A program made the translations under genes and the position numbers. This document shows positions 5,433-59,036 of a stretch of 64,000 bases of DNA, piece by piece (position 1 is the first letter of the stretch; every line of letters starts with the position of its first letter). This DNA is from Sulfolobales archaeon (lineage in GTDB: Archaea > Thermoproteota > Thermoprotei_A > Sulfolobales > AG1): contig JAWBYA010000001.1 of NCBI GenBank assembly GCA_038867615.1, positions 480,001-544,000 on the forward strand, in the 5' to 3' direction. The notes beneath the pieces are model-generated. The model did not search any database. It was given only the letters and a program-made list of their open reading frames with translations, and was not told where the DNA came from.

Positions 5433-5456
5433 CCTTCAATACTATAGTAAATAGAC
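5433..5456 (-). CRISPR. Degenerate solitary CRISPR repeat
   Basis: ccttcaatactatagtaaatagac, 4 mismatches to ctttcaattctatagtagatcgac. Confidence 0.75.
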
Positions 5457-5644
5457 CCCGCGGATTCATAAACCACTGCCAAGCCCAACAGCATCGAGCC
5501 CCCCATATACTATGAGATCATTCCCCGGACGGTTTGGAGCAATGCTCCCATCACCATCCAGAGTCAAGATAAAAATCAACCTATCACCAAAAGCCCTATC
5601 AACAAGACCCTTATAAATCTTCCCTATAGATATCAAAGGAACAG
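5433..5644 (-). mobile_element. IS607/TnpB-derived mini-element copy A fused to a degenerate CRISPR repeat
   Basis: Left end AGGG|CTGTTCC at 5644; TTTATAAG at 5610-5617; 49/54 identical to copy B over 5514-5567 vs 55995-56048; ends in GTCTATTTACTATAGTATTGAAGG (20/24 to the repeat). Confidence 0.8.
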
Positions 5645-5789: not shown

Positions 5790-5813
5790 CTTTCAATTCT
5801 ATAGTAGATCGAC
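5790..5813 (-). CRISPR. Solitary perfect CRISPR repeat
   Basis: Exact reverse complement of GTCGATCTACTATAGAATTGAAAG. Confidence 0.85.
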
Positions 5814-6036
5814 TTACTTCTATTTTGCTTTTACGCGACTTATAGATATGGCTTTTTACTTATTTCAACATGATGTGAAATCAACTCTCGTCGAAAGTTG
5901 TATAATAGGCTATAAGCCACCAGGAGGTTGATCTACTATTTTATTTTATTGATATATGAAAAGTGTGGAGCCACGACCTGTAAAGCTATAGCGAATATAT
6001 ATAGGACTCCTATTAATATTACTCTGGGGAAATGCG

Positions 6037-6618
6037 ATGCAACAGATTCCGGGCTATGCATATGGGGATGTCCCCAGATCCCCGATAACAGACCAGGACT
6101 TCGAGCTCCTTAAGAAGGCTGTGATGCTGGGTGAGGAGGATTTCAGATACTTGAGGAGGGCTTGTGAGGTTCTTAAGGATCAGGTGGAGGATATACTGGA
6201 TCTCTGGTATGGCTGGGTTGGTTCTAATGAGCATCTGGTTTACTACTTCTCAGATCGCGAGACTGGGAAGCCTATAGAGAAGTACTTGCTACAGGTTAGG
6301 AAGAGGTTTGGGCAATGGATACTTGATACAACGTGTAGGGAGTATGATAGGGCTTGGCTTGACTATCAATACGAGATTGGTTTGAGGCATCATAGGACTA
6401 AGAAGGGGAGGGTGGATGATGTGAACACCGTGCCCCATATACCGTTTAGATATATGGTAGCATTTATATACCCCATAACAGCAACCATAAAGTCTTTTCT
6501 AGCTAGGAAGGGCGATCCTCCCGATGTTGTTGAGAAGATGTATAATGCGTGGTTCAAATCAATAGTGCTCCAGATAGCTATATGGAGCTATCCTTACGTT
6601 AAAGAGGGGGACTGGTGA
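6037..6618 (+). CDS. Protoglobin
   Basis: IPGYAYG N-terminus, LDLWYGWVGSNEHL, YQYEIGLRHHRTKK, C-terminal WSYPYVKEGDW. Confidence 0.95.
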   Translation: MQQIPGYAYGDVPRSPITDQDFELLKKAVMLGEEDFRYLRRACEVLKDQVEDILDLWYGWVGSNEHLVYYFSDRETGKPIEKYLLQVRKRFGQWILDTTCREYDRAWLDYQYEIGLRHHRTKKGRVDDVNTVPHIPFRYMVAFIYPITATIKSFLARKGDPPDVVEKMYNAWFKSIVLQIAIWSYPYVKEGDW

Positions 6619-6733
6619 TAGGGGATCTCTTTTTTTAACAAACCACTCTGCTATCATTGCCGGAAGATCTGTTCCAAACCTTTCTACAGAGATCTATATA
6701 TTTGATCATGTCTACTATCTATTAGGGGTCTTT

Positions 6734-7351
6734 TTGAGCGATGCGGCGAGCAAAATCGTGGCCGCGATCGAGAGGATCTCTAGGGCGTATAGGTTCATGA
6801 TCATGGGTAGGGCTAAGAGGTATGGTATCACACTCCTTCAGGCACAGATCATTATCTTTTTAAGCGATAGCCCTAGCGGGAGGAGAAGGATCAGGGATCT
6901 CTCACAGGAGCTAGGGATCTCCCAACCAGCTGTGAGCGATTCGGTCAATGCACTGGTTAAAAAAGGCTTGGTGGTTAAGGGAGCTATAGAGACAGATAGA
7001 AGATCCAGTATGCTGAGCCTCACACAGAGAGGGGAGGAGCTTGCCAGAGATCTGAAACAGTGGCATTCGAAAGCCGTTGAGGCTTTAGAGAACGTAGTAA
7101 ACAGGGAGGAGAAGGAGAAGATCCTAGAGATCCTTCTAAAATACATAGCATCACTCCACGAGAGAGGAGCGATAAAGGTCGCAAGAACATGCCTCACATG
7201 CCGCTACCTATCAGTAAAAAGAAGCAGTACAGGTAGGGATTACTACTGCAAACTCCTCAACCTAAAACTCGGCATAGAGGGACTCCGCCTAGACTGTCCA
7301 GAACATATGCCTAGAAGATCGAGGAAACACACTGGGACTCGAGCCTCATAG
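6734..7351 (+). CDS. MarR-family regulator with C-terminal Cys cluster
   Basis: wHTH (LSQELGISQPAVSDSVNALVKKGLV...DRRS) plus CLTC...YC...LDCPEH. Confidence 0.9.
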   Translation: MSDAASKIVAAIERISRAYRFMIMGRAKRYGITLLQAQIIIFLSDSPSGRRRIRDLSQELGISQPAVSDSVNALVKKGLVVKGAIETDRRSSMLSLTQRGEELARDLKQWHSKAVEALENVVNREEKEKILEILLKYIASLHERGAIKVARTCLTCRYLSVKRSSTGRDYYCKLLNLKLGIEGLRLDCPEHMPRRSRKHTGTRAS

Positions 7352-7717
7352 CGGTTAATATCTCCTCGTATCAACCACTCCACACAGCTCCCAGATCTCA
7401 GGACTCCAATGAGTAGAGCCCTTATCACCAGTCTCCATACATTCAGAGCAACTCCTACCCACAGCTCCTCTTTATATTATTCCTGCCAGACTCATTGCTA
7501 TAGTGAACCCTCGCATCCCGATTCTTACCCAGCCCGCTTAGATCTTTATAGCTTATAGGCTTATCCGTAAAACAATGGGGATCTAATAGAAGAGCCGATA
7601 CTAAATAAAGCTTCATGAAAGCCGAAATAGCTTGTTACAGCAGATCACAATAATAAGTCGGATCTACAAGATCAGGATGTGCTAAAGCCGGCATACCCAA
7701 AGAAAGAGAATCTATAA

Positions 7718-7725
7718 TTTATAAG
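7718..7725 (+). promoter_or_regulatory. Putative TATA box for the mini-array
   Basis: TTTATAAG with a purine-rich upstream tract, ~28 nt before the first degenerate repeat. Confidence 0.45.
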
Positions 7726-7752
7726 CTGGTTAAGAATAAATATAAAGGCAGA

Positions 7753-7965
7753 GTCGATCTACTATAGAACTGAGCATCGCAAAAAGAGATCCCGTGTGAG
7801 TCGATCTGCTATAGAGATAGGCCCTCGGGGGCAATGCCCCTTAGATAGCCATAAATATCAGAGAAGATCCTAGATCAGATCGATCTACTATAGAATTGAA
7901 AGCAGGGGATAAATATTGCTAGATATTGCAACCCACAAGCAGTCGATCTACTATAGAATTGAAAG
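7753..7965 (+). CRISPR. Degenerate CRISPR mini-array (2 intact + 2 eroded repeats)
   Basis: Repeats at 7753 (gtcgatctactatagaactgag), 7800 (gtcgatctgctatagag), 7879-7902 (23/24) and 7942-7965 (perfect); 39-nt spacer 7903-7941. Confidence 0.85.
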
Positions 7966-8109: not shown

Positions 8110-8188
8110 TGGTGCGGCGGCCGGGATTTGAACCCGGGATTTCCGGCGTGGCAGGCCGGCGTCCTAGACCAGGCTAGACGACCGCCGC
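8110..8188 (-). tRNA. tRNA-Gly(GCC), encoded CCA, no intron
   Basis: GCGGCGG acceptor stem, CCGGC-CTGCCAC-GCCGG anticodon arm, GGTTCAAATCC T-loop, ACCA end. Confidence 0.98.
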
Positions 8189-11503: not shown

Positions 11504-12817
11504 CTAGATATGCTTCTGGATTGCTGCAGCGAGTATAGGGTCTGGTACTGTGTAGTGTTCGTCTCGCTTCTCTATCAAGCCTGCCTTGATGAGTTTCTGG
11601 AGAAGTGTGTTGAAATTATGATCATCTATCTCTATACCCTCGCTGAACTCTAGCGCTCTTTTCAGCTCGCTCCACCTTATAGGCTTCTGCGAGGCTAGCT
11701 TGAGTATCGTTCTGAACCTCTTCACGGATCTTGTTCTTGCTAGGAATCTCTTCACCTCTTCTGCCTCTTGTCTAGAGGCGGTGTCCACTATATTCTCAAG
11801 ATCCCTTACACCGTTTACATAGCTCCACCCGAAAAAGGTTAGCCAGCCTATGAGGCCGTCGAGCCTCTCAACAGCCTCCTCGATCACATGCCTGCTAACC
11901 GCAACACTAGACTCGCTGAAACCTCTCTCGAGAAAATCTATAGACTCGCTTCTAGAAAGCCTCTTAACCCTCACCTCGGACACAAGCCTCCCATAGAGAG
12001 GACTCTCGGGATCTTCAATGCCCAGCATGTCATAGAGTAACCCGACCTGAGAGCCGGATAGGATCACGACAAGGTTTCTCAGATGATCATATGTATAGGC
12101 AAGCAGCTTTGAGAAATCCAGATTCAGAGGCAACAGTTCTTGGAGCTCGTCGAAAACCAGGGCAAGCCTTATACCCTCGTTTTCTGCAAACATGTTTAAG
12201 GTTTCTAGGAGGGTGGCTATATTGAATCTCTCCCTCCTCTTCCACCTCAAGGAGATCCTAGCGATGGAAAAATCAACCTCAACACCACTAACACCCCTCA
12301 GAAGACCCAGCAACCTATCAGCGAAACCCCTATGCCGTAGCCAGCTGTTTCAGGTTTCATGATGGTTTATAGGGGTTGATATTGAATCGTAGTTCTACAA
12401 TAATGGAACATTATATAAGCTCTGTATTTTATTGGGATGCCTGCCCAGCAATGAGGGTGGAGATAGAGACCCGAGTGGGTGGGTTAAATAAAAAGCCCAG
12501 GATGTGGGGGTTTCCCCACAGCTATGAACCCGAGCAATGCTATGAAGGGGAGCTGTGGGTTGGGGTCACCCTGAATGGGTGGAGGCCAATGATATGGGCT
12601 CCGATGAAAGGAGCCCTGAGGCCTATGAAGCCAAGGGCTGAGCGGTTGATATCAAGCAATATCAACCGTAGTGAAGCCCGAACCCCCTGCGAGGCCCTAC
12701 AACGGCCACAAGCCTGGCATTCCTATAGCTCCTATAGAGGTTCTCAAGCTCCTCGGCAAAATCATACAGATCCTTCCTAGAGGTCTTAGGAGCTAAATCA
12801 AAGAGCAGAACCACCAC
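11504..12817 (-). pseudogene. Archaeal AAA ATPase (ATPase + wHTH) split by a MITE
   Basis: N-part LFDLAPKTSRKDLYD...VVGPRR stops in Walker A (12686); C-part from ~12343 with LVFDELQ, ILSGSQVGLL, SPLYGR. Confidence 0.88.
12345..12683 (+). mobile_element. MITE family 2 (TnpB/IS607-type remnant, ~339 bp)
   Basis: Starts G|CTGTTTC; imperfect TIR with the right end; TTAAATA box; CCCACAGCT..AGCTGTGGG stem; CGGTTGATAT-6-ATATCAACCG hairpin; second copy at 48501-48685. Confidence 0.8.
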
Positions 12818-46489: not shown

Positions 46490-46790
46490 ATGTTCCTTGT
46501 TGTTAAAAGCTATATTAACTGTGGGCAAGGATTAGCTTCTGAAGCAAGAATAAAGCGTGATAGGAGGGAGAATTGATTAATCGTCTATTTCATCTTTAGG
46601 AAGAAGGATGTTAAACAATACAAGCATAGCGGTTATATAGCTGTAAATATTGATGAGAACAACGTGGCAATACTCATCAATAGGGAGATACCTACTCGCA
46701 ACAGACATGGAGAAATAACATTTATTACTATAGAAAGAAATAAAAAAGATTCAAAAGAAAAACGATATAAGATCTGTGGTGTGTGGTGTT
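46490..46790 (+). pseudogene. tnpB: Degraded tnpB fragment (RuvC-I region)
   Basis: LASEARIK...LIVYFIFRK...YIAVNIDENNVAIL with stops and frameshifts; resembles the crenarchaeal TnpB xVDxNENN motif as recalled. Confidence 0.7.
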
Positions 46791-48430: not shown

Positions 48431-48500
48431 TGCAAAGAGGGCGTAGACAGTACGAGTCGGACTTCATGGCTGTTGATCTTTATTATACACAACACTCTTT

Positions 48501-48685
48501 CTTCGACTTAATAATCCTCAGGGTTCCTTTCATCGGGATCCTTATCCTCGGCCTCCACCCGTTCAGGGTGACCCCAGCCCACAGCTCCCCTTCATAGCTT
48601 TGCTCGGGCTCATTGCTGTGGGGAAACCCTTCATCCTGGTTTTTATTTAACCCGCTCCTCGGGTCTCTATCTTTTACCCTTAGCA
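48501..48685 (-). mobile_element. MITE family 2, second (truncated) copy
   Basis: Reverse complement aligns with 12448-12635 (gatagagacccgag...ggttaaataaaaa...ggggtcaccctgaa...gatgaaagga). Confidence 0.85.
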
Positions 48686-53986: not shown

Positions 53987-55633
53987 TTGAAATACCCCTG
54001 GAGACCTGGTTATGATCTAACAATCGATAGAATGATCAAGACGGTGTTGCATTATAACCCTGGAGGCGAGATAGTATATAGAACTAGATCAGGTGTTGAG
54101 AGGTATAGCTATTCAAAAGCCTATGAGAGGATGAACTCCCTCGCAGCAGCACTCTCAAGCATGGGTGTTAAGAGAGGGGATAGGGTTGCTACCCTCGATT
54201 GGAATACGCACTGGCATTACGAAGCATATTTCGCTATACCAATGATGGGTGCTGTTCTACATCCAGTTAATGTTAGGCTGGCTCCCAGCGAGATTGAGTA
54301 TGTTATGAACCATGCGGAGGATAGGGTTGCTATAGTGCACTCAGACTTCCTCAAGCTCTTGGAGGTTGTGGCACCGAGGGTTAAGAGTCTAGAGCATGTT
54401 ATTGTAGTCGATGCTGATAGCGCTCCTGAGAAGCTGGGGAATGCTAGGGTATATCTATACGAGGATCTCGTGAGATCCCATAGGGAGAGCTATGAGTGGC
54501 CAGAGATCTCTGAGAACGAGGTTGCTGGTATAGGGTATACTAGTGGGACTACAGGCCTGCCCAAGGGAGCGTTCTTCACACACAGGCAGATAGTTATACA
54601 CGCGATGTCTGTAGCCCTCTTCACATCCGCATCCCCCCTAATAGGGTTGAACGCATCCTCAACACTCCTCCACATAGTCCCGATGTTCCATGTATTCTCG
54701 TGGGGCTTGCCCTATGTTGCAACCCTCCTAGGGGCTAGGCAGGTCTATCCCAACAGGCTTATCCCCTCCGTCTTGTTAGAACTCATAGCTAGCGAGAGGG
54801 TTACCCACACAGCAGGGGTTCCCACGATACTCTACATGCTTCTAACAGACCCGTCGAGCCCCAAATACGATCTAAAGGGTCTGAGGTTCATAAACGGGGG
54901 CTCAGCAATGCCAGAGGGTTTGGCGGAGCTTGCTAGAAAGAGGGGTATAGAGGTTATAGTGGGCTATGGCCTGACAGAAACAGCCCCGGTTCTAACAATA
55001 GCAAGCCCCCCGCCCGGTCTGCTTAAAAGCCCCGAGCTGGGTAAACTACTCCTGAGAACCGGATGGCCAGTACCCTTAGTAGAGATAAGGGTTGTTGATC
55101 CTGGAGGAAAGCCTGTGCCGAGGGATGGGAGGACTATGGGTGAGATTGTTGTGAGAGCCCCCTGGCTAACCCCTGAATATTATAGAGATCCTGCCAAGAC
55201 TGAGGAGCTCTGGAGGGGAGGATGGTTGCATACAGGCGATATAGCAGTGTGGTTCGAGGACGGCTCTGTATTGATAATGGATAGGGATAAGGATGTGGTT
55301 AAAAGCGGAGGCGAGTGGATAAGCAGTGTGAGGCTTGAGGATGCTATAAGCACACACCCAGGCGTCTCCCAAGTCGCGGTTATAGCTGTGAGGAGTGAGA
55401 AGTGGGGTGAGAGACCCGCAGCCCTCATAGTCCCGAAACCAGAGTGGAGGGGTAAGATAACGCTTGAGGAGGTGAGGAGGCATCTCGAGGATAACTATGT
55501 TGCCAAGGGACTGATACCGAGGTGGTGGCTTCCAGACATAGTTATAGAGGTTGAGAGTCTTCCCCTAACAAGTGTAGGTAAGATTGCTAAGAGGGTGCTT
55601 AGAGAGCAGTACAAAGATCTAGTAGTTAGTTAG
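53987..55633 (+). CDS. Long-chain fatty-acid/acyl-CoA ligase
   Basis: YTSGTTGLPKG, GYGLTET, WLHTGD, KSGGEWISS. Confidence 0.95.
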   Translation: MKYPWRPGYDLTIDRMIKTVLHYNPGGEIVYRTRSGVERYSYSKAYERMNSLAAALSSMGVKRGDRVATLDWNTHWHYEAYFAIPMMGAVLHPVNVRLAPSEIEYVMNHAEDRVAIVHSDFLKLLEVVAPRVKSLEHVIVVDADSAPEKLGNARVYLYEDLVRSHRESYEWPEISENEVAGIGYTSGTTGLPKGAFFTHRQIVIHAMSVALFTSASPLIGLNASSTLLHIVPMFHVFSWGLPYVATLLGARQVYPNRLIPSVLLELIASERVTHTAGVPTILYMLLTDPSSPKYDLKGLRFINGGSAMPEGLAELARKRGIEVIVGYGLTETAPVLTIASPPPGLLKSPELGKLLLRTGWPVPLVEIRVVDPGGKPVPRDGRTMGEIVVRAPWLTPEYYRDPAKTEELWRGGWLHTGDIAVWFEDGSVLIMDRDKDVVKSGGEWISSVRLEDAISTHPGVSQVAVIAVRSEKWGERPAALIVPKPEWRGKITLEEVRRHLEDNYVAKGLIPRWWLPDIVIEVESLPLTSVGKIAKRVLREQYKDLVVS

Positions 55634-55915
55634 AGAACATAGGGTTAAGGCATAACATCTCCCCAGCGGAGATATGTGGGATCACGATAGCAAGGTTCCG
55701 AGGTGGTGCTAGAAGCTAAGAATCCCGGCTTAATGCTGCATTCCCACGATCTCCCTACATCTCAGGATCTTTTTCACTTTTTCCTTTCCAGCTGTAGGAG
55801 CGTGTTTAAAGATCTCTCCATATATTGGATAGCATGGATACTGTTCTCCTTACTATCGGCTCTTTTCTCTCTACATATCTTCCCGCTATGTTTATATGCG
55901 TCCTTAAGCCTTTTA

Positions 55916-55939
55916 CTTTCAATTCTATAGTAGATCGAC
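55916..55939 (-). CRISPR. Solitary perfect CRISPR repeat
   Basis: ctttcaattctatagtagatcgac, identical to 5790-5813 and to the reverse complement of 7942-7965. Confidence 0.88.
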
Positions 55940-56121
55940 TTGTGGGGTTATGGATTGCTGTTGAGCCTAGCGGCATGGGGCTTCCATCTACTGAGAGATC
56001 ATCCCCTGGATGGCTTGGAGCGATGCTCCCATCACCATCCAGAGTCAATATTGAGATCAAATCATCACCAAAAACCATTCCAATCAAGGCTTACAAATCT
56101 TCTGTATCGGTAAGAAAACAG
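55916..56121 (-). mobile_element. IS607/TnpB-derived mini-element copy B fused to a perfect CRISPR repeat
   Basis: AGGG|CTGTTTTCTT left end at 56121; TTTGTAAG box; CTGGATGG..GGAGC-GCTCC..CCATCCAG stem; ...ACCCCACAA|GTCGATCTACTATAGAATTGAAAG. Confidence 0.85.
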
Positions 56122-56123
56122 CC

Positions 56124-56530
56124 CTATTTCTTAGCCTCAATACTCCTCGCCTCAAAGCCTAGGTATTTATCGATCATTTTGGAGAGTGTCTCCTGGAGAT
56201 CGTTATCAGCATGGCCAAGAGTTCTGCAGAATGCTACAAGACCGCTTAGCCTTATGGTCTCTATCCTAGCCTCCTCAACAAGCTGTGAGAGCCTGAACCT
56301 GAGAGAAGCCTCCCTAGATCTTAGCTCGAGAAGCCTTCTCAAAAGATCTACGCATTCCTCTCGATACAAGATCTCGCCCTCCCCTGAGCCTCATAGATCC
56401 TCCTAAGATCCTCCTCAACCTCCCTAACAGCCCTCTCAAGAGCTTCAATATTCTCCAAAGTAACCCTCAAAAGATCCTCAAGACCATTACTATCAATACA
56501 CACATCATTCATAGGCGCCCCCCACACCAT
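56124..56530 (-). CDS. Helical/coiled-coil hypothetical protein(s); two ORFs, probably one gene frameshifted at a G run
   Basis: ORFs 56348..56530 and 56124..56369 join if CAG-GGG-AG gains one G (EAQGEGEILYREEC). Confidence 0.55.
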
Positions 56531-56533
56531 AAA

Positions 56534-56603
56534 CAGGCGTCATCAGCCCATCACAACTCAGGGCGGTTTGGGGCCCCCAGGCCCCGGGAGGACGCCATCT
56601 CCC
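56534..56603 (-). ncRNA. Fluoride (crcB) riboswitch
   Basis: GGGAGATGGCGTCCTCCC...AAACCGCCC...GGGCTGATGACGCCT: P1 GGGAG/CTCCC, pseudoknot GGCGTC/GACGCC, GCCC/GGGC stem. Confidence 0.85.
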
Positions 56604-56640
56604 AGCCGCGTCGAGCGGCAATAGCTATTACTCTTGAGGG

Positions 56641-56648
56641 CTTATATA
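56641..56648 (-). promoter_or_regulatory. TATA box upstream of the riboswitch
   Basis: TATATAAG ~20-40 nt upstream of the GC-rich leader. Confidence 0.6.
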
Positions 56649-56832
56649 GATACCCAGTTAAGTTGTTATAAAAACTAGATGTTTTGAAGGGTTCTCCTTG
56701 GTTAGTGTTTGTTCCTGGTTGTTTGTTGTCTCTTTTCTATATCTAGGGTTTCTATATGATTTTGTAGGACTGCTTGGTGAGAGACGTGCTGCTATGGTGA
56801 AGAGTGGAAATGCTGGAGAGAATCGGCTCTGT

Positions 56833-57914
56833 CTAGAGGAATGGTCTTTTGACAAGCTCTCTTGTTGATTCTATTAGCCATACTCCTTTTTCTTCGGCTT
56901 TCTTGGGATCGCCTATGTATTTTAGGCAATAGAGCACCATGATGACATTGCCTGTAAATTTCTCTGGCCATTTCTTTCTAGCCCTCTCAACCCTCTTTAC
57001 AAGTCTGTCAATGAGTTTCTCGCTAGCTCTTGTCTCAGCCTCGCCAACGATCACGATACCATTATGTGAGCCATATATATCGAACTCGTATCTCTTATCA
57101 AGCACAATGGATCCGAGGCTTATCTCCAAACCCTTCTCTCTTAAAAACCCCTCGACAACGATCCTAGCTTCCTCCTCGATAGAGATTGTTATGTTCTCAA
57201 GGATCCTCTCAACCCTACTAAGTCTCCTATCAATCCTGGAGACACTTGCTTTCAAAGCGGAAACATCGCTCTTCAAGGTAGAAACGTCGGATTTTAGGGC
57301 TGGAACATCAGTCTTTAAAGTGGATACATCGGATTTCAGCAACCCTATATCGTCTCTAATTCTTAATATATCGGTTTTTATCGCAACCAAATAGCCCTCC
57401 AGGGTTGAGAGCCTCTTATCAACTTGTTTGAACCGTTTGTCCCTGGATGTTCATTCCAGTCATTTTATATTTGTTCATGGTCACATCCGGGGACTTCCAC
57501 CTCTACCCGCAGGATCAGAGAGATCCTGTGGGGTCATGGGCTGCCGTCGAGCCGAACGGCACGCGGCTCCCATCTAGCTTGTGCCCCAGACAGCTTGGAG
57601 CGCTGCTCCCATCGCCACCCGAGACCTGTGTGGGGAGACCCACACCGGGGCCAATATCTTTCAAGGCTTATAAATATCCAGGTGTTGGCGGGAGAGCGGC
57701 TTTCGGGCATGTCGCTCCCAATACTTATAAAAATTTCCAAAGCCTATTAATCCTCACTATGCATATCAAAAAGAGAACAGCCCTCTCTAACATAGTCGGC
57801 CAGTGCTTTGATCGCTTCAGCAATCATTCTAAGATCCTCTGACCTTGCCTCTTCAAGAGCCCTCTTAACGGCTTTCTCAACGATCTCCTCGAGGATTTTC
57901 AGATCTACGGACAT
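56833..57914 (-). pseudogene. Coiled-coil + PD-(D/E)XK-like paralog split by MITE copy C
   Basis: 5' part MSVDLKILEE...DYVREG (57914-57781) and 3' part FKQVDKRL...; C-terminus nearly identical to 10489..11331. Confidence 0.9.
57434..57780 (-). mobile_element. Full-length IS607-type MITE copy C (347 bp)
   Basis: AGGG|CTGTTCTC...ACAAACG|G ends; removal restores the ORF; internal TATA boxes; TnpB-tail-like LDGSRVPFGSTAAHDP; several hairpins. Confidence 0.9.
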
Positions 57915-58082
57915 CAGCGTACCAATAGTTAGTGCTTCTCTAAAACTTATATAAGCCGGGCAAGAAGGATCGCATTGAATCTATAGATCTTGGGGCTTGG
58001 GATGCGTTACTGGTTTTTGGTAACGCGCCCTGCTGAGGGCTTGCTGTGTTGCTGAAAAATATATTGGTTCACGTGATCGGTA

Positions 58083-59036
58083 TTGTGGCTGGTTGGGATG
58101 GTTGGGGTTAGGGATTTTAGTATCGAGATCGCTGGGATTGTTGAGAGGGTTAGGGATTCGGTTATAACCGTTGTTGTTGAGGCCATAGATCCTTTATCAA
58201 TGCTTGAAGCCCCTGTTAGGGGTGTTGGTTCTGGCTTCATAGTTGGTGAGGATCTCGCTCTAACGAATAGCCATGTTGTTGGCTCTGCTATCGAGGCTAG
58301 GGTTATCTATAGCGATGGTGAGGTTGGTGTTGGCAGGGTTCTTGCCAGGGATCCTTACAGGGATCTAGCCCTCCTCGAGGTTGAGAGTAGGGGTAGGCGT
58401 GTTAGGATGGGTGATTCTGATAAGGTCAGGATAGGAGAGCTTGTAATAGCCCTCGGATCCCCTCTCGGGATGCCTGGACCCTCGGTAACGCTCGGTGTTG
58501 TTAGTGCTAGGGGTAGGACTATTGTTGCTGATGAGGGGAGAATCGTTCTCGAAGATCTCATACAGACAGACGCTGCAATAAACCCAGGCAACAGCGGTGG
58601 TCCTCTAATCAACATGGACGCCGAGGCTATAGGCGTCACAACAGCCATGATCCCATTCGCACAGGGAATAGGCTTCGGAATACCCATAAACCATGCCAAG
58701 AGATTCATAACACTGATCTCTAAATACGGGAGACCAGTGAGAGCATGGATCGGTGTCTTCGTAGCACCACTAACACCAGAGATCGCGAGAATGATGGGGC
58801 TCGAAAAAGCAAAAGGAGTAGTTGTCATCAGAACAATCCCCGGAAGCCCTGCAGAAGCCGTCGGAATAAGGAGGGGTGATGTGATCCTCAAGGCAGGGGG
58901 TAGGGAGATCTCAACGCCTGGGGATCTGAGAAACACTATAGAGGATAGCATAGATAGGGGAGAGATCGAGATAGAGCTTGTTAGAAGAGGCTATGTAAGG
59001 GTAGTGAGCGTTCCAATCATTATCGAAGAGCTTTGA
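58083..59036 (+). CDS. HtrA/DegP-like serine protease with PDZ
   Basis: TNSHVV, DLALL, IQTDAAINPGNSGGPL. Confidence 0.95.
   Translation: MWLVGMVGVRDFSIEIAGIVERVRDSVITVVVEAIDPLSMLEAPVRGVGSGFIVGEDLALTNSHVVGSAIEARVIYSDGEVGVGRVLARDPYRDLALLEVESRGRRVRMGDSDKVRIGELVIALGSPLGMPGPSVTLGVVSARGRTIVADEGRIVLEDLIQTDAAINPGNSGGPLINMDAEAIGVTTAMIPFAQGIGFGIPINHAKRFITLISKYGRPVRAWIGVFVAPLTPEIARMMGLEKAKGVVVIRTIPGSPAEAVGIRRGDVILKAGGREISTPGDLRNTIEDSIDRGEIEIELVRRGYVRVVSVPIIIEEL

Follow-up and report, generated by a model that had tools for sequence, protein, structure and literature searches.

The closest described counterparts of the RNA reported here are the guide RNAs of TnpB, termed omega RNA or reRNA, for which accounts are available from ISDra2 TnpB and the archaeal SisTnpB1 (IS200/IS605 superfamily; PMC8612924, PMC10097598, bioRxiv 2023.03.06.531077). 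TnpB guide RNAs and TnpB-only elements had been described before, as had their abundance in archaea (PMC10691335, PMC12558985). In this study, a 64,000-nucleotide (nt) stretch of DNA from a Sulfolobales archaeon, hereafter the window, was analyzed, and three copies (A, B, and C) of a dispersed element were identified on its minus strand, all of them without a tnpB gene (Table 1). The folded core shared by these copies very probably represents the front part (helices P1 and P2) of a TnpB guide-RNA scaffold with IS607-type features.

The family resembles known TnpB systems in several respects. Its RNA overlaps the 3' end of tnpB and extends to the right end of the transposon, as is outlined for omega RNA in the cited part of PMC10691335. 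A multi-stem scaffold would be followed by a guide derived from the flanking DNA, which for the window family is deduced from the position of the scaffold, and numerous gene-less or TnpB-only copies are present per genome. Unlike the RNAs of ISDra2 and SisTnpB1, the window family has a different sequence without an Rfam model, its pseudoknot is only a proposal, and it is known from sequence.

Gene-less copies fused to a repeat of the clustered regularly interspaced short palindromic repeat (CRISPR) type are referred to as type 1 (A and B), and gene-less copies with a complete RNA end as type 2 (C). The transposon-CRISPR intermediates of the TnpB-to-Cas12 transition (TranC) reportedly combine a TnpB-type guide RNA with a CRISPR repeat, and type 1 copies would likewise hold both in one predicted transcript. 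In contrast to TranC, the repeat corresponds to that of a host class 1 (Cas6-type) array rather than being derived from the transposon end, no tnpB accompanies it, and there was no sign of TnpB using the repeat. Two further systems are comparable. As summarized in the cited part of PMC6188088, IS607 elements have a GG target and GG termini, with neither inverted repeats nor target duplication. The biology of RNA anti-CRISPRs (Racrs) and solitary repeat units (SRUs) in phages and plasmids is covered by the cited parts of PMC10651486 and PMC11656645.

The source genome (G000) is 2.22 Mb in size and 94% complete. Five other genomes of the genus (G001 to G005) were included, of which G003 is a close relative. 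The tnpB type and protein of the full-length elements that are kin to the window copies are denoted X1. E-values of the covariance model are rough, as the calibration was short.

Covariation of the RNA core

The initial annotation had drawn attention to positions 5460-5570, which fall within copy A, and had compared the stems of the three copies. These stems were recovered letter for letter, all on the minus strand. The outer arms of copy A, CTGGATGG (5561-5554) and CCGTCCGG (5532-5525), enclose an inner GGAGC-att-GCTCC hairpin (5548-5536); copy B pairs CTGGATGG with CCATCCAG around the loop atc, and copy C pairs CTCGGGTGG with CTGTCTGGG (57623-57585) around the loop agc. The copies are alignable across approximately 210 nt, including an upstream TATA-like box. 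Exact matches of GGAGCNNNGCTCC in the window were limited to A, B, and C, and with up to one mismatch the motif occurred eight times, compared to an expectation of 2.58 and with none of 100 shuffles reaching eight. Three copies by themselves, however, cannot show selection, and the covariation among them was not significant.

A larger alignment of 108 rows included A, B, C, and 105 copies from this and other genomes, after 12 candidate rows of the wrong strand or of chance origin were removed. It contains related copies, so that the cell counts given below overstate the number of independent events. Both the alignment and the tested structure were chosen by the authors, and RNAalifold agrees with them. 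In the named structure, 89.0% of cells pair, compared to 79.7% in shuffles, two-sided changes were observed in 21 of 30 pairs, and none of 500 shuffles matched any of five measures. Sliding the partner by one to three columns reduced the pairing to 33-44%. The outer stem (P1) showed two-sided changes in eight of its ten pairs (for example, GC in 46 and CG in 37 sequences), and the helix P2 (GAGCCC/GGGCUC) in all six. When applied blind to the same alignment, RNAalifold predicted 20 pairs, 15 of them with compensatory changes, which make up the outer stem, the inner hairpin, and GAGCCC/GGGCUC; from the 39 decayed near-full copies of the source genome it recovered almost nothing. The RNA structure is thus real at the family level. 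Additionally, G-U cells exceeded A-C cells in the outer stem by 132 to 35 among the 108 sequences, and this excess identifies the TATA-directed (minus) strand as the folding strand, the orientation that had been proposed.

Other parts of the proposed structure fared differently. The inner hairpin is 98% paired and nearly invariant, and its stem is indeed shared by copies with differing loops. The near-invariance in the family is partly forced, because the pattern used for fetching loci fixed the inner hairpin. A second stem, GCCGT/ACGGC in copy C and GCTGT (5492-5488)/GCAGT (5479-5475) in copy A, had been regarded as compensatory. Its middle pair was unpaired in 77 of 107 sequences, its two sides varied independently among the copies of the source genome (CA 10, CG 10, TA 6, TG 6), and RNAalifold did not predict it from the 108-row alignment; this stem is not supported. 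Beyond the core, 70 of 74 full scaffolds contained all anchors, among which P3 had at least nine consecutive pairs in 41 and P4 at least eight in 50. The P2 loop CCGUU was complementary to the 3'-terminal AACGG in 55 of the 70.

Selection on the RNA structure had also been proposed for the window copies themselves, including a repeat-fused one. Among the copies of the source genome, repeat-fused copies included, no sign of such selection was found in 39 near-full copies or in ortholog pairs. The outer stem of these 39 copies contained 39 G-U and 32 A-C cells, as under neutral decay. Orthologous repeat-fused copies were less alike than their flanks in three of four informative pairs (169/221, 196/212, and 172/214 identical positions; 207/213 in the fourth), and a fifth pair was identical throughout and hence uninformative. 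H/ACA RNA, box C/D RNA, and a K-turn in the internal loop of P1 were considered as well and rejected for motif mismatch, as judged by eye only.

Probable identity of the core as a TnpB guide-RNA scaffold

Full-length elements provided the context of the core. At G000:C1:2283-754 and C2:204655-203153, the left end and the core lie 1.2 kb apart and enclose an open frame of 444-474 amino acids (aa), which at the first locus spans C1:2175-754. A third full-length copy is divided between two contig ends. The stem described in the initial annotation corresponds to the final codons of this tnpB frame (...ALGGDGSSAPSHPG...), from where the conserved RNA extends to the right end of the element. Because the core overlaps the 3' end of tnpB and reaches the right end, its position is that of a TnpB guide RNA. 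TnpB is a RuvC-like nuclease with a zinc ribbon, and the encoded protein matched PF07282 with 43 bits (cut-off 26.3) and TIGR01766 with 56.9 bits (cut-off 32), and its sole sequence match in the PDB was Cas12f1 (E 2e-4). In copy C, the scaffold ends at the transposon boundary, as the empty site in G003 places the junction between GGGACAAAC(G) and GGTTCAAAC. In copies A and B it does not, since a CRISPR repeat has replaced the guide-side half.

The affiliation with IS607 is suggested by the lack of terminal inverted repeats and of target duplication, by insertion at (G)GG, by GG termini, and by repeated left-end motifs. Copy C is absent from G003, where the flanking matches abut in a clean junction at C15:162050; the target there is GGGG and is not duplicated, and ...CGG terminates the element. 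In other copies, GGG closes the left flank, and the first 30 nt of the full-length element are directly repeated within its left end. Resolvase-type genes were found in all six genomes of the genus, and in five instances (G003:C4, G002:C73, G004:C74, G005:C7, and G005:C243) the Resolvase directly adjoins a tnpB whose product is 46-52% identical to X1. In contrast to IS607, whose elements encode a serine-recombinase TnpA next to TnpB, the copies nearest to the window elements carry tnpB alone, and the gene-less copies carry neither gene. IS200/IS605 in the narrow sense, which is defined by the Y1 HUH transposase, is not supported, with no PF01797 match in the source genome (94% complete). The predominance of short, internally deleted copies over the autonomous element resembles miniature inverted-repeat transposable elements (MITEs). 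The hallmarks of classical MITEs, however, are terminal inverted repeats and target duplications; copy C has neither, and this classification was rejected.

Several observations weigh against the assignment to an IS607-type TnpB guide RNA. The protein matched guided_TnpB (NF040570; E 4.8e-24) with 85.3 bits, which is under the curated cut-off of 100. The tnpB frame is open across the whole scaffold in both full-length copies, and part of the conservation could therefore be protein-coding. The proposed CCGUU/AACGG pseudoknot was invariant among the 70 anchored sequences and never covaried, so that it stands as a proposal only. No transposase was found beside the X1-type tnpB copies, the single Resolvase open reading frame (ORF) of the source genome lies on another contig (C23), and Y1 transposase (PF01797) had no match in this 94% complete genome. 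Three metatranscriptome runs of the same study gave no reads in any of 30 bins across window positions 55300-58300, and hence constitute no test of transcription. For copies A and B, which lack the guide-side half, the term guide RNA names their descent and not a present function.

The organization of the elements is compatible with a mechanism of the following kind. In full-length elements, where the scaffold overlaps the final part of the tnpB frame and extends to the right end, transcription would continue into the flanking DNA, and the flank would act as the guide. By analogy with known TnpB systems, the nuclease and its RNA would cut the empty allele beside a short motif, and repair would restore the element. 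The window copies appear to have lost tnpB through internal deletion and to have retained the left end and the promoter. Copy C, with its complete RNA end, could be loaded in trans onto TnpB from the approximately three full-length copies of the genome, and would still make a flank-derived guide without a gene of its own; the adjoining flank GGTTCAAACAAGTTGATAAG is where such a guide would presumably be read. Copies A and B could not supply a canonical TnpB guide. Transcripts of the B type would most likely meet Cas6, and could then act as a repeat decoy or as a source of flank-derived CRISPR RNA (crRNA).

Repeat-fused copies

Two CRISPR arrays are present in the source genome, one with 122 repeats (GAAGATCTACTATAGAATTGAAAG) and one with a different repeat, in addition to approximately 20 solitary repeats. 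Twelve of the solitary repeats lie directly 3' of the core and form the repeat-fused subfamily that includes A and B. Here, (G/A)TC and a 21-nt repeat core stand in place of the 3' half of P3, the linker, and P4. The solitary repeat matches that of the 122-repeat array at 21 of 24 nt, with differences only in the first 3 nt. Canonical copies retain the 11 terminal nt of the transposon (GAGACAAACGG) after the repeat, as observed at C5:93961 and C4:201440 of the source genome and at the loci L153, L155, L158, L159, L160, L161, and L163 of its relatives. Two copies with the same 5' leader and a complete right end (C2:148763 and C4:137494) look like precursors of the repeat-fused form. No tnpB gene was found beside any repeat-fused copy. 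According to the sister genomes, the DNA after the repeat is ordinary host flank, and searches with the flanks after solitary repeats and with the spacers of the 122-repeat array revealed no second genomic target, but only chance matches of 15-19 nt.

Whether these copies have any function at all is evenly balanced: the odds that they are relics without function were put at about half. Copy A, in which the repeat has decayed, is most likely a fossil, while copy B is an intact repeat-fused copy.

As a second explanation, the repeat-fused copies would be RNA anti-CRISPRs, whose solitary repeat binds Cas6 or effector subunits and titrates the host CRISPR system as phage Racrs do. Their layout agrees with that of a Racr or SRU, in that a solitary, host-like repeat follows a predicted promoter (a TATA-like box about 170 nt upstream) on a mobile element remote from cas genes (compare the cited part of PMC10651486), and the close match to the 122-repeat array fits this view. 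Besides the 12 repeat-fused copies, about ten further solitary repeats lie near TATA-like boxes. In ten type 1 copies that were found through the core and not through the repeat, the repeat was the best-conserved block (0.924 compared to 0.783 elsewhere, rank 5 of 193 windows). A Cas1 gene adjoins the large array, and two Cas6 proteins are encoded at C11:23289-24326 and C1:283242-284219, both of which were weak matches to TIGR01877 and were confirmed by Pfam Cas6_N and CRISPR_Cas6; a search of the source genome with PF01881 had no match, but also missed the Sulfolobus control. Against this explanation, the spacers of the 122-repeat array matched the elements only by chance (17-18 nt), and with no matching spacer in the host array there is no visible CRISPR pressure on the family. 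Moreover, orthologous copies diverge beyond their flanks in three of the four informative pairs noted above. The repeat-fused copies also differ from Racrs in being insertion-sequence derivatives in an archaeal chromosome, in their number of 12, and in the position of the repeat behind approximately 110 nt of TnpB scaffold, all as read from the DNA. In the cited parts of the literature, Racrs are known from viruses and plasmids, and not from insertion-sequence derivatives. Taken together, an anti-CRISPR role appears rather doubtful.

The coreless solitary repeats outside the window, about ten in number, lie 25-35 nt 3' of TATA-like boxes and have no TnpB core. Examples are located at C1:606099, C1:450529, C1:429134, and C10:4971, and at C1:450529 the transposon tail GAGACAAACAG comes after the repeat.

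Breakpoints at the repeat end

Comparisons with sister genomes separated the copies by their ends. Those with the 11-nt tail resemble simple insertions: L160 has 225 nt compared to 18 nt in the empty genome, and L161 has 269 nt compared to 53 nt. Among seven tail-less copies, five (B, L135, L136, L154, and L165) lose homology to the sister genome no more than 2 nt from the 3' end of the repeat, and in L156 and L157 the homology breaks 13 and 104 nt beyond the repeat end, respectively. The locus L139 was too rearranged to be read. At each of the five breaks, the sister genome carries other DNA, and between 67 nt and 5.9 kb of host DNA was replaced (about 680 nt vs. 773 nt at B, 320 nt at L135, about 600 nt at L136, 67 nt at L154, and 5.9 kb at L165). 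The 3 nt that precede the retained flank in the intact alleles are CCT, TCT, CCG, CTA, and CTG, three of which conform to YCN.

The break pattern would fit either a CRISPR integrase joining DNA at the repeat/spacer border or a crossover that the IS607 recombinase makes at the GG where repeat end and tail meet. A broader proposal, that the repeat-fused derivative swapped the guide-side half of the TnpB RNA for a host repeat and was thereby plugged into the class 1 CRISPR machinery, with the 3' border of the repeat as an active DNA joint, is considered unlikely. If the recurrent breakpoints at repeat ends are confirmed in further genomes, they would indicate activity at solitary repeats on the DNA level.

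In a third explanation, the copies hijack the host CRISPR system: Cas6 would free a crRNA with the flank as its spacer, and the host effector, in place of TnpB, would attack the empty allele and thereby favor retention of the element. The repeat is placed exactly where the TnpB scaffold meets the guide, with the 11-nt right end kept in canonical copies, and the sequence after it is host flank instead of an acquired spacer. YCN is a protospacer adjacent motif (PAM) of type I-A systems in Sulfolobales, and CCT, TCT, or CCG precedes the retained flank in three of five intact alleles. However, the PAM of this particular host may be another, the number of alleles is five, and the pattern was spotted post hoc. 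Additionally, a single repeat leaves type I effectors without a defined 3' end, and the copies decay. Hijacking is therefore quite improbable.

In the part of the literature that was searched, no account was found of gene-less multi-copy elements that fuse a TnpB scaffold with a class 1 CRISPR repeat. The RNA itself is of a known kind, a TnpB guide RNA, and the repeat-fused form is new. This fusion holds the chief interest for specialists. If Cas6 processes the RNA, it would be either the first transposon-borne repeat decoy in archaea or a case of a transposon passing its guide function to the host CRISPR system, and both readings, if true, bear on the origin of combinations of transposon guide RNAs and CRISPR arrays.

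Other explanations of the core

The core could also have been kept solely as the code for the C-terminal tail of TnpB, with the stems as a by-product. The tnpB frame does run through the scaffold in both full-length copies, and the open frames of relatives span 467-490 aa. The paired columns, however, change on both sides while the pair is kept (GC 46/CG 37 in one case, GC 43/UA 25/AU 15 in another), which alters the encoded residues on both arms. The 132 G-U against 35 A-C cells are specific to the folding strand, and the helices persist in gene-less copies with frame-breaking indels. A purely coding origin is thus very improbable, and the structured scaffold of a TnpB guide RNA remains the preferred reading of the core.

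An interpretation of the copies as CRISPR leaders or as a transposon-independent family of host small RNAs (for example, box C/D-like) could draw on the terminal repeat of A and B, on the TATA-like box of each copy, and on a type 1 RNA that would begin near GGUGAUGA with UUGAC downstream, but it is extremely improbable. Each locus has one repeat and no array, and the true leader of the 122-repeat array has a different sequence that the hidden Markov model of the family did not match. Moreover, the 3' end of tnpB consists of this very core, copy C is a mobile insertion within a gene, and no Rfam family was found for the copies in the window (gathering threshold) or in the full-length element (E<=1).

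Family size and distribution

A profile built from A, B, and C identified 69 stretches in the source genome (nhmmer, E<1e-3), 39 of which were near-full, and the covariance model gave 59 matches at E<=0.001. The common left end (GGG, then CTGTTTTCTTTTTGATAT) was found 31 times with up to four mismatches, including 22 occurrences next to the core. Type 2 copies such as C are approximately 355 nt in length, with two further hairpins after the core that reach ...GGGACAAACGG, and type 1 copies terminate in the CRISPR repeat. In total, dozens of short copies outnumber about three full-length elements in this genome.

The family is widespread among related archaea. Of 151 genomes sampled from the class, 95 were matched by the covariance model, representing 41 of 59 genera. 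A blastn search with copy B matched 12 of 31 related genomes, including all five other genomes of the genus. The exact core motif was present in at least 113 stretches of public contigs, chiefly in Desulfurococcales-type and other Thermoprotei metagenome bins; by our own estimate, the few bacterial matches are near the level expected by chance for 18 fixed bases. TnpB homologues ranged from 11 to more than 157 matches per genome of the genus. At the gathering threshold, Rfam 15 yielded only a tRNA and a fluoride riboswitch in the window, and it returned nothing for the full-length element at E<=1. With no Rfam model for a family found in 95 of 151 genomes, a family model would annotate hundreds of puzzling, hairpin-rich intergenic blocks.

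Two observations on the spread of these repeats were made in passing. The 2.7-kb region L134 (G000:C7:65100-67800), which contains one copy each of types 1 and 2, recurs with 100% identity in G002 and G003, although other shared regions are 88-95% identical; this suggests that the region was transferred recently or that the assemblies share material. Another dispersed family, with repeats of approximately 190-350 nt, was found at many loci of the source genome, including positions ~12499-12654 and ~48495-48629 of the window. Since it overlaps the 3' ends of other TnpB-like ORFs (C1:12309 and C1:51361), it is probably the guide-RNA/right-end region of a second TnpB family with gene-less copies of its own. 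One copy of this second family was inserted in a repeat-fused element (C1:235505-235853).

Layout of the window copies and neighboring features

The order of parts in copy A is the left end (CTGTTCC...), the promoter, the 5' two-thirds of the TnpB guide-RNA scaffold, and the degenerate CRISPR repeat. Its P2 is retained through three G-U pairs, and its repeat has four mismatches to the 21-nt repeat core. Across the genome, a TATA-like hexamer was located 40-95 nt 5' of the core in 26 of the 39 near-full copies. In copy C, the left end includes two promoter-like modules (proximal TATA at 57674-57668), followed by a hairpin in the 5' untranslated region (UTR), so that the tnpB promoter and 5'UTR hairpin are joined straight to the RNA region. 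Its scaffold is complete and consists of P1, P2, P3, the linker GAGGTGGAAG, P4, and the end GGGACAAAC(G).

Table 1. Coordinates of the elements and their parts within the window, with the supporting evidence.
Feature	Position	Strand	Evidence
Copy A, gene-less type 1 element	5433..5644	-	nhmmer E 9.4e-48; model 75.7 bits (C1:485442-485566)
TATA-like box TTTATAA, copy A	5611..5617	-	aligned with the equivalent box in B and C
Stem P1, copy A: CTGGATGG/CCGTCCGG enclosing the inner hairpin	5525..5561	-	covariation of homologous columns
Helix P2, copy A; family consensus GAGCCC / loop GUGCCGUU / GGGCUC	5481..5502	-	alignment; RNAalifold
Degenerate CRISPR repeat GTCTATTTACTATAGTATTGAAGG, 3' end of copy A	5433..5456	-	alignment to the exact repeat in copy B
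Copy B, type 1 element	55916..56121	-	nhmmer E 9e-54; model 98.5 bits
Exact CRISPR repeat, 3' end of copy B	55939-55916	-	sequence match
TATA-like box TTTGTAA, copy B	56097-56091	-	
Stem P1, copy B	56042-56006	-	
Copy C, gene-less type 2 element	57434..57781	-	blastn extent q305-660; empty site in G003; model 113.6 bits
Flank GGTTCAAACAAGTTGATAAG adjoining the right end of C	57414..57433	-	boundary from the G003 empty site
tnpB fragment, same family; 68% identical to residues 173-231 of the full-length protein	46511..46690	+	tblastn

Copy C interrupts a gene for a coiled-coil protein, which is continuous in G003, and an in-frame TGA comes from the left end of the element. From position ~56592 to the end of copy B (55914), G003 carries different DNA, which includes the intact 5' part of the gene truncated by B. 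For copy A, no synteny was found in G003, none for the A segment in G001, G004, and G005, and synteny with G002 begins only at window position 5920.

The segment 56069-56043 of copy B and its equivalents in other type 1 copies would form the 5' end of the predicted RNA (GGUGAUGA ... UCU ... UUGAC). It looks like a small hairpin framed by boxes C and D, and is well conserved, at about 0.9 in ten copies. Next to copy B, a fluoride riboswitch (Rfam, 46.9 bits) was identified at 56527-56611 on the minus strand, upstream of an 81-aa ORF (56124-56369, minus strand) without a Pfam match.

Additional repeats were located near copy A. A solitary repeat in the opposite orientation is present at 5790-5810 on the minus strand. 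A leader-like stretch at ~7700-7965 on the plus strand carries two exact repeats (one spacer) along with two degenerate ones, and is similar to the leader found at the 122-repeat array. The genes for a protoglobin and a MarR protein lie in between (6037-7351), and in G002 this pair of genes has the reverse orientation and lies between inverted copies of another repeat family. Further along, a tRNA-Gly (GCC) is encoded at 8110-8188 on the minus strand.

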